Part shown: positions 1-40,136 of the stretch, piece after piece
Numbering within the stretch: position 1 is the stretch's first letter
How the letters are laid out: each line of letters opens with the position of its first letter
UHGV virus genome: UHGV-0038496
Source: a virus
Direction: 5' to 3' (one strand)
DNA: 64,000 nucleotides
Notes under the pieces: model-generated
Told to the model about the DNA's origin: nothing
What the model saw: the letters and a program-made list of their open reading frames with translations, nothing else
The model's database searches: none
Program-made: the position numbers and the translations under genes

Positions 1-498
1 GTGTGGGCAGAAAAAAGCTGCCTGTTTCTGACCAACATTGATAAGGCAGTACTGAGTCATCTTGCTGACCAGAACAGAATCCAGTTCAAGTGCTACCAGA
101 TTCGTAAGCAGACAAGCTACGAAGATATGCACAGGAACAACTGGTGCGGTGATTCCACACATGTGATCGCCATGGAAGCAGGGTTGCCGTACGACAAGAA
201 CCACAACAGGAACCGGAAGGTGGCAGAGAGTATCAAATTCCTAGAGTCAATCGGCCTTGTGATTAGCAAACCACATGCACGGAGATTAGCGACTATTGAT
301 GAAATATCCACACACGAAGACGTGGAATATTTTCTTCTGCACCCTTCTAAAGACAGAACTTTAAGATCTGTTTTCAGCAGCAGAGCAGGTTTCCTGAAAT
401 GGGTAGAAGAAAACAGAGGTTGTGGATACAGCCAGTTACCTTACCAAGAGCATCATATTGACACGGATGTTCTCTTGTGGTATCCTTGTTACGATTAA
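1..498 (+). CDS. hypothetical protein, possibly 5'-truncated at window edge
   Basis: Open frame from position 1 (GTG); no recognisable motif. Confidence 0.3.
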   Translation: MWAEKSCLFLTNIDKAVLSHLADQNRIQFKCYQIRKQTSYEDMHRNNWCGDSTHVIAMEAGLPYDKNHNRNRKVAESIKFLESIGLVISKPHARRLATIDEISTHEDVEYFLLHPSKDRTLRSVFSSRAGFLKWVEENRGCGYSQLPYQEHHIDTDVLLWYPCYD

Positions 499-515: not shown

Positions 516-914
516 ATGACAAATTTAGGGCAGTACCACAAAATCTACTGGGAGATGACAGAGATAAAATACATCAGAAACAAGAAAGATGGTGGAGTAA
601 TCAGAGTAAAATCTGCACACATTTTAATCTACTCATACCTCCGTAGCTGTTTTGAAAAATATCTCAAAGCTATCAAGTTACGCAAAAACCAAGGTATGAA
701 GGTTGTTCGGGCAGAGTTATGTGAGAAAGCAATGGTTGACAAATCTGTAGTCTGCAAAACTCTTAACGACCTTTCAGATGCTGGGTTGATATCTTTAATG
801 AGTAACTCTGGTAAAAGGGGGTACGTATTCAATTTTGTAGCGGATGTTGAGTCTTTCTACAAAGCAGCAGTTGATGAGGATGGAGAGTCTATCTATGCAG
901 TGGATACAGAGTGA
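516..914 (+). CDS. putative winged-helix DNA-binding protein (possible iteron-binding protein)
   Basis: ATG at 516 preceded by AGGAG; helix-turn-helix-like segment KSVVCKTLNDLSDAGLISL; iteron cluster lies immediately downstream. Confidence 0.45.
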   Translation: MTNLGQYHKIYWEMTEIKYIRNKKDGGVIRVKSAHILIYSYLRSCFEKYLKAIKLRKNQGMKVVRAELCEKAMVDKSVVCKTLNDLSDAGLISLMSNSGKRGYVFNFVADVESFYKAAVDEDGESIYAVDTE

Positions 915-954
915 TTATGACTGGTGCATTTTTGGCGGTTATAACCTCTCATCA

Positions 955-1076
955 GTATGGAAACCATACCGTTTATCGGTATGGAAACCATTCATTATCG
1001 GTATGGAAACCGAAGAAAAAAGTGCGGTTTTATTTTTAAGAATATACCGATAAGAGGCGGTTTTCATACCAATAAG
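955..1076. repeat. iteron-like repeats, core GTATGGAAACC (3 direct copies plus 2 inverted, degenerate copies)
   Basis: Direct copies at 955-965, 973-989, 995-1011; inverted degenerate copies at 1043-1053 and 1059-1076. Confidence 0.55.
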
Positions 1077-1129
1077 AGGTGGAAATCGCCTAAAAACTCC
1101 AGAATTATCTTTATAAATCCTAGGGTTAA

Positions 1130-1460
1130 GTGCTGACAGATCAGATCAGATCAGGGATAGTAACTTCGTTAGCATTCCCTCTAACTCGTTACTATGTAGT
1201 ACTAAGCTCGTACTCTCGCTTACTACCGTAAGCTCGGTACTCACTAAGTACTACCATAAGCAATGTCTTGCTTAATTAATTTATCAATTAATTTTATCAG
1301 TACAAAATCAATCAATAAATTAATTAATCAATCCATTGATACCACTAAGTTCGTTCCTCACTAAGTGGTATACATGCTGATAGCATTCCCTCTATCAGAT
1401 GATACTAAGTTCACACTTCGTATCCACTCGTGTTCACTAAGTATCATTGATCCATTATTG
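1130..1460. repeat. short CACTAAGT-type repeats flanking an AT-rich TTAATTAAT tract
   Basis: Multiple ACTAAG(T/C) copies; AGCATTCCCTCTA present twice (about 1170 and 1385); AT-rich palindromic tract 1260-1330. Confidence 0.4.
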
Positions 1461-1827: not shown

Positions 1828-1856
1828 TTGACAGCAGATGAAAATTATGTTATTGT
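1828..1856 (+). promoter_or_regulatory. sigma70-like promoter (TTGACA, 17 bp spacer, TATTGT)
   Basis: TTGACA at 1828-1833, TATTGT at 1851-1856; upstream of CDS 1898. Confidence 0.5.
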
Positions 1857-3795: not shown

Positions 3796-5073
3796 ATGAA
3801 TCAAGTAAAAACAACCCTCTATGCACTCAACCGTGACGGAAGCGTACAGCGGTGGAAAGTGTTTACAGAGGGTGAAAAAGTAATAGTTGAGTTCGGTAAG
3901 AAAGACGGTAAAATGCAGTACAAGGAGACGATCTGCAAAGCTAAAAACGTAGGCCGTGCCAATGAGACTACTCCAGAGCAACAGGCCGTTCTGGAAGCAA
4001 CCAGTAAGTGGGAGAAGCAAGTTCGCCTGGGTTATGTTGAAGATGAAAGCAATCTTGTGGTGGAAGAAAATCTGATTCCGATGCTGGTCCATGATTACCT
4101 GAAACGCGGTAAATCACTTATTCTGCCGTGCTGGGGATCACACAAGCTGGATGGTCTGCGGCTGCTGGTAAACTTCGAAGGGGATACTCCTGTGTTTATC
4201 TCACGCGGTAACAAATCGTATCCTATCGAAGGGGACATTATCAAACAACTTAAACAGCTCCGTATCCGCACTGGATTCAGCCGTTTTGACGGTGAGATTT
4301 ACATTCATGGTCTGCCGTTGCAGAAAATAGTGTCTCTGGCGAAACGCTGGCGCACACAGGAAGAAATTCAGGCCGAGATCGATAAAGACTATGCCGCCGA
4401 CATAAAACGCCGTCAGGCAGCGATTAAGGCAGGAAAACCGACGTATCTGAACTTCAACAAAGAAGAGTTTCCTGTTGAAGTCGAACCTGTGCGTGATGAC
4501 ATGCGTTACGGTGGTTACTCAAGCTACGATCTGCAATACCACATCTTCGATATTCCGAGTAACAAAGTATGGTGGGATCCTGAAACAGAGCAAGGGCGTT
4601 GTGCAGATCTTCTTGGCATCAAAGATTTCATTGAAGATCTTGACCACATCTTCACTGCTGAGCCGGAACTGTTCCACACGGTTGAAGAGTGTGAAGAATC
4701 GGTGGGACGCTACATGGCTGAAGGTTATGAAGGTACAGTACTGCGTAATTTCTGTGGTGAATATGAATACGGTCAACGTTCATGTAATGCTTTGAAATGG
4801 AAGAAATTTAACACGGATGAGGCCAAAGTTGTCGGTGCTGAAGAAGATAAAAACGGTGAAGGTGTATTGATTTGCCAGCTGAAAAATGGTAAAGTATTTA
4901 AGTGCAAAATGAAAGGCACACATGGTGAACGGTTGTACTGGAGGATGGCTAATCTGAAAGGTAAATTTATCACGTTTAAGTACCAGGCTCTCACAGAAGA
5001 CGGTCTTCCTAGTTTCCCTACAGGTATAGCGGTACGGGATGTAGACCCAATTACCTGGGAGGTTTTAGAATGA
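3796..5073 (+). CDS. DNA ligase (nucleotidyltransferase motifs I, III, IV, V)
   Basis: Motif I HKLDGLR, FDGEIYIHG, EGYEGTVLRN, ALKWKKF; ATG at 3796 with AGGAGC RBS; ATP- versus NAD-dependence not resolved. Confidence 0.8.
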   Translation: MNQVKTTLYALNRDGSVQRWKVFTEGEKVIVEFGKKDGKMQYKETICKAKNVGRANETTPEQQAVLEATSKWEKQVRLGYVEDESNLVVEENLIPMLVHDYLKRGKSLILPCWGSHKLDGLRLLVNFEGDTPVFISRGNKSYPIEGDIIKQLKQLRIRTGFSRFDGEIYIHGLPLQKIVSLAKRWRTQEEIQAEIDKDYAADIKRRQAAIKAGKPTYLNFNKEEFPVEVEPVRDDMRYGGYSSYDLQYHIFDIPSNKVWWDPETEQGRCADLLGIKDFIEDLDHIFTAEPELFHTVEECEESVGRYMAEGYEGTVLRNFCGEYEYGQRSCNALKWKKFNTDEAKVVGAEEDKNGEGVLICQLKNGKVFKCKMKGTHGERLYWRMANLKGKFITFKYQALTEDGLPSFPTGIAVRDVDPITWEVLE

Positions 5074-5714
5074 AAAAGAGAAATAGAAAACCTGTAGAGT
5101 GGTATTTGTTAGATTTTGACTTTAAATTCAGAGATGGTACATGGTGCAACTGTACTGAAGTTGTTGTAGGTGATAAATCTTACAAAGTTTTAACAAAAGC
5201 AGGTATGATATGGTTTAATATCAAACAGAGAACAAGGTTGGGGTCAGCTTACCAGAAAAATAAGCCCACTTATGCTGGAGTAAAAAATTGTTTTAAGGAT
5301 TTTCAAGATTTTTGTGATTTTTGCCAAACAGCCCCAGGGTATCACATGAAGGATAAGTATGGTAGAAACTATGCTTTAGATAAAGACATTCTTGATAGAA
5401 GTGGTAGAAAAGAGTATAGTAGAGACACCTGTTGCTTTGTTCCTTTGGATGTAAATAATATGTTGTTAACTAGAGGAGGTAAAAAGGCTTCAGACTGTCC
5501 ACCAGGTATATGTATGACTTCTTGTAAAAAATATGTAGTTCGTGATGGTCGTGGTAAAAGCAAAGTCTGTAATACGTTAGAGGAAGCCATAGCTGTTAAA
5601 AATAAGTTAAAAGCCGAGAGAATCTTGAGCAAGGTGGAAAGTGGTTATCTCGATTATGACAAAAGGATAGCTTTGCGTTTAACGGAGATAGCTGAAGATC
5701 TTCTAGGAGGGTAG
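5070..5714 (+). CDS. putative homing endonuclease-like protein (HNH/AP2-like)
   Basis: YALDKDIL ... CCFVPLDVNN segment plus AP2-like C-terminus; overlaps ligase stop. Confidence 0.4.
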   Translation: MKKRNRKPVEWYLLDFDFKFRDGTWCNCTEVVVGDKSYKVLTKAGMIWFNIKQRTRLGSAYQKNKPTYAGVKNCFKDFQDFCDFCQTAPGYHMKDKYGRNYALDKDILDRSGRKEYSRDTCCFVPLDVNNMLLTRGGKKASDCPPGICMTSCKKYVVRDGRGKSKVCNTLEEAIAVKNKLKAERILSKVESGYLDYDKRIALRLTEIAEDLLGG

Positions 5715-36883: not shown

Positions 36884-37594
36884 CTACATTCCATAATCCT
36901 CATCCTGCTTCTGAGCCATTCCATGATAAACTTCCCAGTACTTAGAGGCATACACCATATCCCATTCTTCCTGAGTCACCCATGCAATCATCCCACTGAG
37001 AATGTCTCTCACCTGTTCCCATTCTTCCCTTTGAGCAATAGCCTCTTCCTGTGTTTTGAATGCTTTCGCTATACGTTTTGTAACGGTATGACGAGTGACA
37101 GCAATACTTGCCCTCCAGTAAGTGTACGGGCCATTATGATATTCACTTACCCCACAAATACCAGACTTGTTAGTTTTGTGCATACCACTGTTAGTCATGT
37201 TCTGTAGGCGACTAACCAGTCTGAGATTGTCCAGGTGGTTGTTACCAGGGTCACGATCAATATGGTCAATCTCCATACCTTCCGGGATTGGACCATGATG
37301 CATCACCCAGATAATCCTTGCACCCTGGAGCAGAGTCTGTTTCCCGTCCACCAGCCAGCCTACAACATAGCGACCATCTTTAGCTGCATAGCTACCAGCA
37401 ACAGCCCCCTTCTTCGCATTAGAAGAACGAGTAAATTTATTCCTCAACACACCAAACTCAGCATCATAAACGAAATAGATGCTCCAGTCTGTAGTGTTAT
37501 ACACCTCCTCAAATTTCACCACAACTGTTTTGTTGTGATTGTTCTTCACAGCGTTATCATAATACGCCTGGGCATCAGCCTTGAACTCAAACAT
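36884..37594 (-). CDS. HNH homing endonuclease with AP2-like domain
   Basis: IDHIDRDPGNNHLDNLRLVSRLQN HNH motif; GICGVSEYHNGPYTYWRA AP2-like. Confidence 0.7.
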   Translation of the reverse strand: MFEFKADAQAYYDNAVKNNHNKTVVVKFEEVYNTTDWSIYFVYDAEFGVLRNKFTRSSNAKKGAVAGSYAAKDGRYVVGWLVDGKQTLLQGARIIWVMHHGPIPEGMEIDHIDRDPGNNHLDNLRLVSRLQNMTNSGMHKTNKSGICGVSEYHNGPYTYWRASIAVTRHTVTKRIAKAFKTQEEAIAQREEWEQVRDILSGMIAWVTQEEWDMVYASKYWEVYHGMAQKQDEDYGM

Positions 37595-38357
37595 CCTGAC
37601 CTCCGAAACCTTTTACCAGTATCGAAAATATACCACAAATGGCCTGAAGAGTCAAATCATTTCCCCTCTTTAAGCCTCTTTGATCCGATTAACATGCTAA
37701 TTATTCACAGAAAATACCCACACATAGCCTAAGCACTTGATTTCATTGTGAAATATGGCCTGAAGAGCACCACATATTTTAACATACCTTTAACATAATA
37801 CTTCCCCCGTATATACCTCCCCGCCCTGTCCAGGAGTCCCGTAAATACTGGCTTCCCCACAAATATCAGCACCACAAATATCACAGGCCTGAAGAGGGCC
37901 TCATTTTTTTTTATTCGCACCTCCCCCTCCCCCGTAGGGCGGTACATAGCCTGAAGAGGCATTCATACAATCAGGGGCAAATATCCCAGACTTACATTTG
38001 AGGTATTAGGCAGGCGAAACGCGACTCCTTCTCATAATGCGAATGATTCTCAAATATCACGGCTGCTTTCGTTATTGATAGCCTGGGCCTTGCAGCTATT
38101 GGCCTGGTTATTGCACGGTAGTTACTCACAGCGATTAATAGTTACACACAGAGATTATAGGGTTGACTGTTCACGCCCTCATTGTGTGGGGTTGAATAAT
38201 AACATGCGTTACAGTTTTCCACAGGAGCATTTAAGTTGATGATAAGCCTTCTCATTTGGGAATAATTATTACTTCGTATTGTTCATCATACGTAACACCA
38301 GTTATACGCACTTATGATCATCTGTACAGTAGTTCCACACAAAGGTAGGACACTGGG

Positions 38358-38397
38358 TTATCCACAGGTGGCAGGGTTATCCACAGACTTATCCACA
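38358..38397 (+). promoter_or_regulatory. cluster of three perfect DnaA boxes (TTATCCACA)
   Basis: TTATCCACA at 38358-38366, 38377-38385 and 38389-38397, same orientation. Confidence 0.6.
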
Positions 38398-39410
38398 GCT
38401 CACGTATGACGCTACGCGGAATAATCACAGGTCAAACGACAGGAAACGAAAGGAAACGAAAACAATCGAAAGAAGATTAATTGCGGTTTATTACAGCACG
38501 AAAAGATTAATCATTGCAATAGTTAGCCTGCTATTAATTATATTTACAGGGGTGACAGTTACGTCATGTTACAGATGACTGGGCATCATATTGCACTGGC
38601 ACACTACCATACCAGCTATATAACATGCCCCACAGATGCATCTTATAACTGGTCTGACCACTTACGCATAAAAAATCGTTGACAAAAAGAGCGAAATTTG
38701 TTAGGCATACTTTCCCCATACTTCGGTCATACTCCCCCCACAGTTTACAGTTTGAAAAGCCCATAATCACACCTCAGGCCTCTGGCCTTCGAGGTAACGC
38801 AGTTACGAGACACGCATTGAAATCATAACATCCCATGACTGTTTACACAGCGTAGCACTGAGGCCCCGCCGATTTTACACATCTGACAGTTTACACGCAT
38901 GACAGTTTACGCCTTGATTTACAAGGAAATAGTTGCGACATGTAACTACCGCAAGACGGTATAGTTGCGCCGTGTTATCGTTGCATGTGTAACTTTACCG
39001 TGAAGCCATAGGCTGAATGTGTAACATTACTTCAGCGTTATTGTCACAGATCTGATAGTTTGCACTCTACTCTTAACCAGTGTTATAGTAACACCTGTTA
39101 CTACTACTTTTGACATAATAACGCTGGGAAAACGTAACCGTTTTTGATTATTAACATGTAATAACCCAGCGTTACCATAACAATTTTTATTGTTATTGGA
39201 GGACATAATAACGCTGAGGATTATTACATGATAATTTATGATATAATTTCGCTGGCTATGCCAGGTGGACTACGTCCACCCCGTAGGGCGTTATCATAAA
39301 TTAGCGAGATAATAATGCTGGATAATAACACGGGGGTGTTATTGTCACTCAGCGTTATTATGTCGCTCCCTCCGGTCGCGCCATGTTATCGTTGCATAAT
39401 GTGATTATTG

Positions 39411-39545
39411 CATTCGCAAATTATTATTTATCTTATTTTACTTTATGCAATTTATATATTTTCATTGATTGTAATTTTATTTATTTTATATTTTATTGTA
39501 TCTCATAATCTAATTATATTACTAATATTATACTATATAGATTAT
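39411..39545. other. AT-rich tract (candidate DNA unwinding element)
   Basis: About 130 bp of very high A+T with short ATTTTAT-type repeats. Confidence 0.45.
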
Positions 39546-40092
39546 TGAGATACAGAATAATCACCGCCTGAAAGTATATTAATCCCACAGCAGAATAGTC
39601 ACTGCATGAAATAATGTGGGGTGGGATAGTCACACCTCGGCATGACTGCCTTGCGGAATAATCACCATATTTACCACACCTGCCAGGTTGTTGAGAATAT
39701 TTCTCATATGTTAGCTATGCACTAATATTGCATAATTAAAACATACCTATCAGATGCATCTTATCGTGACGCTACGTGAAAAATAGAATTTTGCGCCTAT
39801 AGTTATACCCGATTTTTCAAAAAATGGACTTTATAACTCACTGTTTTATAAAGATTTATAGTTGTTGACACAGCCATATAAAATGTGCATCAGCCGAAAA
39901 GTGTGAGATACTTCACAAAATGCCCTACATTTGACAGCCGAAAACTGAAAAAACTTAAAAACTATGTATGCAAATACAGCTATTTTACTGTGTGGTTAAT
40001 TTTTAGGCATTTTATTTTATGCATTGTTTGAATACCGGATTCACAGCTTGCCCATGAAGCTACGCTGAATAAATCACTATATTACAGACAAC

Positions 40093-40115
40093 AAAAAGGC
40101 CGCTTATTTGCGGCC
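40093..40115 (-). terminator. rho-independent terminator (minus strand)
   Basis: GGCCGC-ttattt-GCGGCC hairpin with T-run on minus strand; directly after stop of 40137-40556. Confidence 0.6.
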
Positions 40116-40136
40116 CCTTATTATTTCGTTGATAAA

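Follow-up and report, generated by a model that had tools for sequence, protein, structure and literature searches.

A winged-helix gene and its adjoining repeats as a candidate replication origin in an rV5-like virulent phage

What is the role of a small DNA-binding protein whose gene is followed directly by phased repeats and an AT-rich palindrome? This question is raised by a locus near the start of UHGV virus genome UHGV-0038496, of which we analyzed one stretch of 64,000 nucleotides (hereafter, the window). The winged-helix gene (positions 516–914, + strand) is an open reading frame (ORF) of 132 codons running from ATG to TGA. The non-coding part of the locus extends to a conserved promoter-like site at 1828–1856 (+ strand; promoter scan and alignment), which belongs to the next gene, an HNH endonuclease (1898–2371), and forms the right-hand limit. 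The original prediction for this DNA was a plasmid-like replication or partition module. We suggest that the locus comprises, on balance probably, a replication origin used by an rV5-like virulent phage and the gene of its cognate origin-binding protein.

By profile comparison and structural modeling, the window protein shares homology with the N-terminal domain through which the PLE RepA initiator binds iterons. Searched alone, it returns weak winged-helix matches only, the best in Pfam being DUF6945 (21.6 bits, E = 2.3e-4). Metagenomic homologues are close (n = 11, 81–97% identical). An exhaustive HMMER search added P0013, which is 33% identical to the window protein and itself matches FV3_00072, the equivalent of rV5 ORF79 (26% identity, E = 3e-11). 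This intermediate was needed to link the window protein to rV5, because tblastn against 50,697 phage records found no match. DUF6945 is also the best Pfam match for FV3_00072 (26.9 bits) and P0013 (27.4 bits). When a profile of these three lineages was compared with all PDB sequences, it matched 4RO3 at E = 2.1e-7 over 98 residues (9–106 versus 6–101), and the second-best match had E = 0.008. 4RO3, a DUF6945 member in its own right (84 bits), is the N-terminal domain of RepA from the Vibrio cholerae satellite PLE (PMC7145576). PLE RepA is a RepA_N-type initiator that binds the PLE origin iterons in electrophoretic mobility shift assays, and PLE replication requires the repeat sequence bound by RepA (PMC7145576).

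The predicted structure points to the same family. A first AlphaFold2 model, built from 12 near-identical sequences, was poor (predicted local distance difference test, pLDDT, 51) and was superseded once two more lineages had been added. The model from the alignment of all three lineages is confident (pLDDT 84.5). Its topology of three helices and a wing bears out the original prediction of a winged-helix DNA-binding protein. A Foldseek search with this model ranked 4RO3 first, and ranks 3–11 were mostly 5KBJ (a RepA–iteron DNA complex), 4PQL, and 4PT7, with four generic regulators interleaved. The fold agrees with that of DUF6945 and 4RO3. The PHROG annotation, moreover, already names the rV5 homologue a replication initiation protein, FV3_00072 being assigned to phrog_12838.

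The repeats downstream of the gene are phased and concentrated at this locus. The iteron zone (929–1095) is an imperfect 167-bp palindrome of three direct units, one full inverted unit, and one half inverted unit, the first repeat starting 40 bp past the stop codon of the winged-helix gene. The GTATGGAAACC core lies on the + strand at 955–965, 979–989, and 1001–1011, with spacings of 24 and 22 bp. Three direct and two inverted copies had been reported earlier; the direct copies and one inverted copy (GGTTTTCATACC, 1059–1070) stand, whereas the second inverted copy proves to be the outer half of a unit only (ATACCGATAA, 1044–1053). Allowing up to one mismatch, the 12-mer GGTATGGAAACC matches four times in 117 bp here and once elsewhere in the 64 kb, against a calculated chance expectation of ~0.3 in the whole window.

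Unit 1 is a dyad, GTATGG-AAA-CCATAC (955–969), of which units 2 and 3 retain the left half and the AAA. RepA_N iterons have been described by Barth et al. as inverted sub-repeats converging on a poly-A tract (PMC7145576), and unit 1, in which inverted half-sites meet on an A-tract, has this layout. Winged-helix gene, repeats, and hairpin tract features are all found in 12 related metagenomic loci. The non-coding region was aligned over 10–12 of these loci, and the identity of each zone was measured over 11. At 74.8% mean pairwise identity, the repeat zone is the least conserved and fastest evolving part of the locus, below third codon positions. Its changes can be concerted: in L002 and L017, GTATGG has become GTACGG in all direct and inverted copies, and unit 1 reads GTACGG-AAA-CCGTAC.

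Protein and repeats differ together between lineages. In FV3, four 22-nt semi-palindromes, TGTCCG-N5-CGGACA, directly follow the homologous gene at spacings of 22, 21, and 21 bp. L018, a locus of the P0013 lineage, has a different repeat set with 23-bp phasing. Three lineages therefore present three different recognition helices and three different repeat sequences, and AT-rich tracts occupy the equivalent place in FV3 and L018. L018 and FV3 share 83–89% identity in the genes on both flanks and 84% in a GC-rich element described below, while they are unalignable over the protein gene, the repeats, and the AT-rich core. Since the unalignable part is embedded in an 83–89% identical backbone, we conclude that protein and sites were exchanged as one cassette. 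As far as sequences can tell, this is what a cognate initiator–origin pair would do. Cassette exchange within a conserved backbone amounts to a natural experiment, which indicates that protein and repeats function together. Compared with FV3, the window's lineage carries the entire module in the opposite orientation, though still at the strand switch.

The genome that carries this locus is that of a phage. Judged by its sequence relationships, the 64-kb source is an uncultured Vequintavirinae-like (rV5-like) virulent myophage of ~135 kb, and the label “plasmid-like” is accordingly abandoned. Its DNA ligase shares 70% protein identity with the FV3 and rV5 ligases, and Vequintavirus genomes match a 24-kb part of the stretch at 76–78% over about one-fifth of its length. 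Searches of the locus by megablast and blastn against the 50,697 phage records gave no match, nor did blastn against PLSDB plasmids or all complete E. coli genomes. The absence of plasmid and E. coli matches indicates that the element was not borrowed from a plasmid or from the host. A scan of IMG/VR added just two members, both of the window's own lineage. The module was not found beside the phosphoesterase gene in Mydovirus or in phage VivaForever, where that neighborhood only, and not the whole genome, was scanned. A tRNA search was empty.

Gene order also places the locus among replication functions. Genes run rightward to ~37 kb and leftward past that point, and cumulative GC skew tracks gene direction. 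In the metagenomic relatives (contigs of 112–138 kb), only one to three genes separate the locus from the divergent strand switch, and it heads the arm with ligase, exonuclease, DNA polymerase subunit, and Nrd genes; the opposite arm leads to the large terminase gene. The surrounding genes are those of phage replication and nucleotide metabolism (ligase, exonuclease, a DNA polymerase subunit, and NrdD), with HNH endonucleases scattered among them. Upstream of the winged-helix gene is a putative sigma-70-type promoter with an extended -10 element (TTGACA-17-TG-TATCCT; 458–486, + strand; 10/12 in a consensus scan), which has a counterpart at the equivalent place in the relative L008.

Between the repeats and the HNH gene lie two further elements, the first of which is an array of hairpins. 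Six consecutive hairpins fill 1157–1447. The tract (1156–1449) has 96.1% mean pairwise identity, compared with 80–82% at third codon positions of the flanking genes and 91.9% at first and second codon positions of the winged-helix gene; it is more conserved than the neighboring proteins. Against dinucleotide shuffles, the fold z-scores of 1150–1480 are -8.7 (+ strand) and -11.3 (- strand) for DNA and -11.3 (+) and -13.3 (-) for RNA.

H1 (1157–1195) has a two-tier stem (ATAGTAAC/GTTACTAT and GTTAG/CTAAC) and the loop CATTCCCT. The same loop tops H5 (1377–1398) despite a different stem, CTGATAG/CTATCAG, and in L018 it sits on a third, GGGAAG/CTTCCC. H2 (1196–1254; arms with ACTAAG(C/T) and an A.A mismatch on the + strand), H4 (1339–1371; arms ATACCACTAAGT / ACTAAGTGGTAT), and H6 (1399–1447; arms ATGATACTAAGT / ACTAAGTATCAT, loop with GTATCCACT) share inner arms of ACTAAGT with the A.A mismatch; their outer arms differ yet stay complementary. 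H3 (1261–1338) is a 78-nt AT-rich palindrome and the proposed DNA-unwinding element, with a GC content of 23% around it (1250–1349). ACTAAGT occurs five times within 1243–1442, always on the + strand; the remaining 63.8 kb contain eight more, roughly as many as chance would give. The tract also has a sixth copy, ACTAAGC, from 1201 onward. The earlier description of ACTAAG-type repeats around an AT-rich palindromic tract was right about the motifs and the palindrome, although the motifs are not free-standing repeats but paired arms of H2, H4, and H6.

Some sequence changes in the tract preserve pairing. At the H3 pair 1282/1317, seven loci have T-A and the other five G-C, and the H6 pair 1402/1444 changes from A-T to T-A in L022. 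Wobble pairs favor one strand: at nine stem positions of H3, bases that depart from Watson-Crick pairing read A.C on the + strand, equivalent to G.T on the - strand, and at one position the sense is opposite. The GC skew of the tract is negative and that of its flanks positive. Judging from this wobble bias and the negative skew, the structure seems to be important in a single strand, namely the - strand.

The second element is GC-rich and modular. It is reached through a T-rich run and an invariant TTTTCCCACAA junction (1465–1489, + strand; by alignment, L018 has the related TCTCCCACAGAGG). The element itself (1490–1800, + strand; 54–60% GC), characterized by GC content, indels, and covariation, consists of hairpins that are each followed by (U)GUGGG. 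Relatives differ in the number of hairpin modules through hairpin-sized indels of 0–265 nt, and because these are mostly not multiples of three, the element is not coding. Mean pairwise identity is 75.9% at 1500–1800. An ORF at 1365–1751 (128 aa) was considered as a gene and rejected, since the relatives have indels of 51–265 nt there, the majority of lengths not divisible by three, and gene calling places nothing there at any locus. By the same indel pattern in relatives, the 56-aa ORF78 of rV5 (L025 2230–2400), which sits inside the element, is probably spurious and not a gene.

Two hairpins of the element show compensatory change. P1 (1600–1621, + strand) has two covarying pairs under a conserved 12-nt loop, and its few G.U pairs favor the + strand. 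P2 (1634–1668, + strand) is paired in all eight distinct sequences (100%), with changes on both sides in five of six pairs across three lineages; one of 500 shuffles reached the observed number of double changes, and all slid controls gave zero. For this test, single hairpins were aligned and pairs counted, and P1 and P2 were chosen by eye, which biases the result in their favor. RNAalifold on MAFFT alignments of the element gave no result, the stems being misaligned, and in a thermodynamic test the element folded no better than shuffled sequence (z ~0). The GC-rich elements of the window, FV3, and L018 have UGUGUGGGA, CUAAUGUGG, and hairpin P2 in common, and the element stays beside the locus though the downstream gene differs between lineages.

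How might these parts work together? The locus has three phased direct repeats beside a protein gene, an adjacent AT-rich tract, and repeats that change together with the protein, all features of iteron-type (theta) origins. The idea of an iteron-controlled origin gains support from the PLE RepA homology, the RepA_N-type layout of the first repeat, and the co-variation of protein and repeats over three lineages. Under this origin reading, host RNA polymerase would transcribe the winged-helix gene early from its own promoter. The 132-aa product, a stand-alone RepA_N / PLE-RepA N-terminal domain, would bind as a dimer to the five 22–24-bp-phased repeats downstream of its own gene. The nucleoprotein complex would then destabilize the neighboring 23% GC tract, so that the AT-rich palindrome and the flanking hairpins extrude or melt. 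The resulting single-stranded DNA could be the start point for the phage's own helicase-primase and polymerase. For the remaining parts we can offer guesses: the invariant CATTCCCT loops and ACTAAGT arms may be strand-specific single-strand initiation signals for loading or priming, and the GC-rich hairpin element may set the limit of the bubble or give rise to an RNA that acts as primer or regulator.

Several observations weigh against an origin at this site. The window protein (21.6 bits) does not reach the DUF6945 gathering cut-off of 28 bits, and neither it nor FV3_00072 nor P0013 matches PF06970, the RepA_N profile, at E <= 0.1 in a Pfam search. Only 25 of its residues follow the wing, and they make up one short helix and an acidic tail. 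It is thus a DNA-binding domain only, with no C-terminal domain of the kind that RepA_N initiators use, which leaves replisome recruitment unexplained. The recognition helix is invariant across 12 homologues although the repeats drift. The hairpin array is strong in the window's lineage only (z = -3.1 in L018 and -0.75 in FV3); being weaker in L018 and absent from FV3, it is an elaboration of that lineage and not a universal part of the module. The rV5 authors (2013) could not define an origin, and skew in rV5 follows transcription. Finally, DnaA boxes (TTWTNCACA) have no match at 900–1900, the best approximations being GTATCCACT at 1420–1428 (7/9) and TTTCCCACA at 1479–1487 (8/9). Such boxes are present in many, but not all, iteron-type origins.

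A second region of the window looks at least as origin-like, and it is chiefly for this reason that our confidence in an origin at 516–1900 is not higher. At the convergent junction of the two gene arms, 37600–40130 is a 2.5-kb gene-free, repeat-rich region. It holds three perfect DnaA boxes, TTATCCACA, at 38358, 38377, and 38389, all within 40 bp, and three looser TTWTNCACA matches close by, which makes 6 of the 10 matches in 64 kb. Four repeat families of 13–18 nt are also present (GACATAATAACGCTG, four direct copies and further inverted ones; TGACAGTTTACAC, GCGGAATAATCAC, and GGCCTGAAGAG, four copies each), and GC content falls to 20.5% at 39400–39599. The region corresponds to a gene-poor Vequintavirus junction, with patchy similarity at about 103–107 kb. 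This region may be a second or even the main origin, a DnaA sink, or a packaging region.

If the phage's real or main origin were at 37.6–40.1 kb, the 516–1900 locus would be a secondary origin or serve another purpose. We regard this as rather unlikely. The boxes, the repeat families, the AT-rich tract, and the matching position in Vequintavirus all speak for it, while the region has no adjoining initiator-like gene, its Murica counterpart lacks a DnaA-box cluster, and it lies at a convergent junction with a skew peak, as at a terminus. Moreover, several origins are common in large phages, which would leave room for an origin at 516–1900 as well.

It is similarly improbable, in our estimate, that 1150–1800 mainly encodes structured non-coding RNA, with the repeats incidental or regulatory. 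The GC-rich part would then give a + strand modular hairpin RNA and the core possibly a - strand RNA, with imagined host or phage targets (e.g., to sponge up a protein, as an element of processing or stability, or to counter defense). Such RNAs would account for the compensatory changes in P2 and P1, the gain and loss of hairpin modules between relatives, the conserved loop sequences over altered stems, and the persistence of the GC-rich element beside the locus despite a differing downstream gene. They would also fit the opposite strand preferences of the two parts, where the strand favored by G.U pairs is + in the GC-rich part but - in H3 (9 versus 1), and the GC skew of the core, opposite to that of its flanks. 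On the other hand, no conserved promoter or terminator was found on either strand, and the GC-rich part folds no better than shuffles. Rfam 15 gave no match at gathering scores in the 64 kb; at E <= 5, the only matches in 880–1920 were two spurious plant-miRNA hairpins, both on the iteron palindrome. Hairpins of an origin, formed in single-stranded DNA, would leave an equal covariation signal. The RNA explanation is also compatible with, and does not contradict, an origin that relies on an RNA for priming or regulation. A CsrA sponge, suggested by GGA in - strand loops, was set aside, as the search revealed no promoter and P2 does not conserve the GGA motifs.

These considerations lead us to a tentative proposal. 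The hairpin array (1157–1447) and the modular element (1490–1800) might possibly represent a new class of strand-specific, structure-dependent elements carried on a swappable initiator–iteron cassette. They could act as single-strand initiation signals for the rV5-type helicase-primase, or as phage non-coding RNAs (a primer or R-loop RNA, or a host-protein sponge).

Less probable again is an early transcription regulator with no direct part in replication initiation, its repeats being operators for read-through or for a promoter that feeds the downstream region. The annotation of rV5 ORF79 is “putative transcriptional regulator,” the protein consists of a DNA-binding domain only, and it has many weak profile matches to MarR, Lrs14, Fur, and CodY-type regulators. 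In addition, the A/T-rich dyad center of the repeat zone, GGAAACCG-AAGAAAAAAGTG-CGGTTTTATTTTT (1005–1037, + strand; a stem of 6–7 bp, a 12-nt loop, then a T-run), resembles a weak terminator and may be that of the winged-helix gene; a terminator scan did not call it. Within it, AAGAAAAAAGTGCGGTTTT is identical in nine of ten aligned loci, with one substitution in L002. Nevertheless, sequence and fold comparisons give the protein a single strong relative, which is an initiator domain and not a regulator. Instead of covering the gene's promoter, the sites are found downstream of the gene; no more copies occur in the 64 kb, unlike what a regulon would need, and no conserved promoter was found just 3' of the repeats.

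We consider a packaging site (pac or cos), with the winged-helix protein as a small terminase-like recognition subunit, very unlikely. Small terminases of the lambda Nu1 type have a winged helix and bind repeated sites beside bending sites, a likeness that the locus shares. Four contigs (L003, L004, L013, and L016) also break inside it, two of them 54–62 nt past the stop codon, in the repeats, and two in the core or GC-rich part. These ends are likely due to strain variation or to trouble in assembling repeats, and strain variation in fast-evolving repeats explains them equally well; full-length contigs pass through the locus. The large terminase gene lies 5–6 kb off, on the opposite arm, no terminase family is among the Pfam or PHROG matches of the protein, and its fold matches are initiators. 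Least probable of all, to the point of being hardly credible, is the centromere-like partition site of the original prediction, understood with a TubR/ParR-like adaptor as in plasmid prophages: it would suit a phased repeat array beside a small DNA-binding protein and the weak TubR matches (profile E = 0.16; Foldseek E ~0.03 with the pLDDT-51 model), but no ParA, ParM, or TubZ-type gene occurs in the neighborhood in the window or the 12 related loci, the phage group is strictly virulent with no plasmid-maintenance genes seen, and TubR is not among the top 50–60 matches of the pLDDT-84.5 model.

Returning to the origin reading, we find that the locus would work like an iteron origin with a RepA_N / PLE-RepA-type initiator, its formal membership in that group being partial. 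Among the closest known systems are rV5 ORF79 / FV3_00072 and the 660-bp gap that follows, with a homologous protein (via P0013, 33% identical to the window protein and 26% to FV3_00072). There, the parts come in the same order (protein gene, ~22-bp-phased repeats, AT-rich tract, and GC-rich element with UGUGUGGGA, CUAAUGUGG, and P2), also near a divergent strand switch. Unlike the window, rV5 and FV3 have TGTCCG-N5-CGGACA x4 as repeats, no CATTCCCT hairpin, and no exceptional array (z = -0.75), and their module is oriented the opposite way with respect to the ligase arm. The closest systems also include the RepA_N plasmid initiators of Gram-positive hosts (pSK41 and pTZ2162 RepA; 4PQL, 4PT7, 4PTA, and 5KBJ) and the DnaD N-terminal domain. 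The window protein differs from RepA_N initiators in lacking a PF06970 match and a C-terminal domain. RepA_N plasmids, furthermore, usually have iterons inside the rep gene and antisense RNA copy control, whereas the window repeats are downstream of the gene, in a phage. PLE RepA and its NCR3 iterons (PMC7145576) belong to Vibrio cholerae phage satellites, not to a large virulent phage genome; PLE RepA has a C-terminal domain, while the window protein (132 aa) consists solely of the N-terminal one, and the two are only ~16–22% identical with a Pfam score below cut-off. PLE has no described counterpart of the hairpin array or the GC-rich structured element.

Two better-known origins offer analogies. 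In ori-lambda, dyad-symmetric iterons of ~20 bp lie at about two-turn spacing beside an AT-rich region, and the N-terminal domain of O binds them as a dimer. Among related lambda-type phages, initiator and iteron specificity are exchanged together. The window locus would resemble ori-lambda in its iteron array beside an AT-rich region and in the joint exchange of initiator and iterons. This likeness is one of layout; ori-lambda lies inside the O gene, and O's C-terminal domain recruits P-DnaB. The oriV of IncQ plasmids (RSF1010) has iterons, a GC-rich and then an AT-rich stretch, and conserved hairpins that are single-strand entry sites (ssi) for an element-encoded primase; IncQ plasmids encode their own helicase and primase. 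Here the likeness would be one of mechanism only, with no protein or DNA homology. IncQ has two ssi hairpins on opposite strands, while the window has six hairpins with all motifs the same way.

The literature yielded no description of an rV5 origin, of its repeats, of cassette exchange, or of the hairpin tract or structured element, and nothing relevant on Vequintavirinae non-coding RNAs or transcriptomes. Phages of the rV5-like type (Vequintavirinae) have been isolated widely and find use against E. coli, Salmonella, and Klebsiella, yet their origin has so far been undefined. The present locus offers a concrete candidate. With origin and initiator defined, these phages would be easier to engineer. 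As a RepA_N-type initiator from a Gram-negative background, PLE RepA has been regarded as odd. The locus ties it to a family of stand-alone domains in large virulent relatives of coliphages, which hints at a source of satellite initiators. In the ultraconserved hairpin tract and the covarying GC-rich element, we may be seeing novel cis-acting DNA signals or novel RNAs.

The surroundings of the locus are variable. The gene immediately upstream of the winged-helix gene (window 1–498; equivalents in L002–L017) encodes 236, 160, 103, or 90 aa or is missing, while the winged-helix gene, its promoter, and the non-coding region are constant. The first genes of the other arm are interchangeable, encoding KilA-N/ANT, AntA, pRha, or Bro-N proteins. 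The window has four HNH endonuclease genes (1898–2371, 5070–5714, 9581–10315, and 36884–37594, the last on the - strand), and the ligase arm of relatives carries differing insertions (Bro-N, pRha, and more HNH genes). These genes and insertions point to heavy traffic of homing and moron genes around the locus. In L012, an IS200/IS605-type element (483–2066; Y1 transposase and OrfB / Cas12f-like TnpB) lies just upstream of the winged-helix gene.

Eighteen GenBank records of the MG0656xx series, labeled “Campylobacter phage,” carry the rV5 / FV3 winged-helix gene at 97–99% identity to the E. coli phage version and match the window the way Vequintavirus does. Their “Campylobacter” host labels look doubtful.

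Smaller repeats border the structured elements. A tandem GAGAGCGTTT x2 at 1799–1818 lies directly upstream of the -35 element of the HNH gene promoter; its second copy is invariant among the aligned relatives, and the first varies in several of them. Downstream of the same promoter, TGGTAAAAGTA (1865–1875) resembles the proposed rV5 late-promoter motif TggTAaAAtA. Another tandem repeat, (GATCA)3 at 1138–1154, separates the iterons from the hairpin tract. Relatives have three tandem copies of other 5–6-nt units at this position (AATAAC, AATAG, and, in L018, GGACT); repetitiveness, not sequence, seems to be what is kept.

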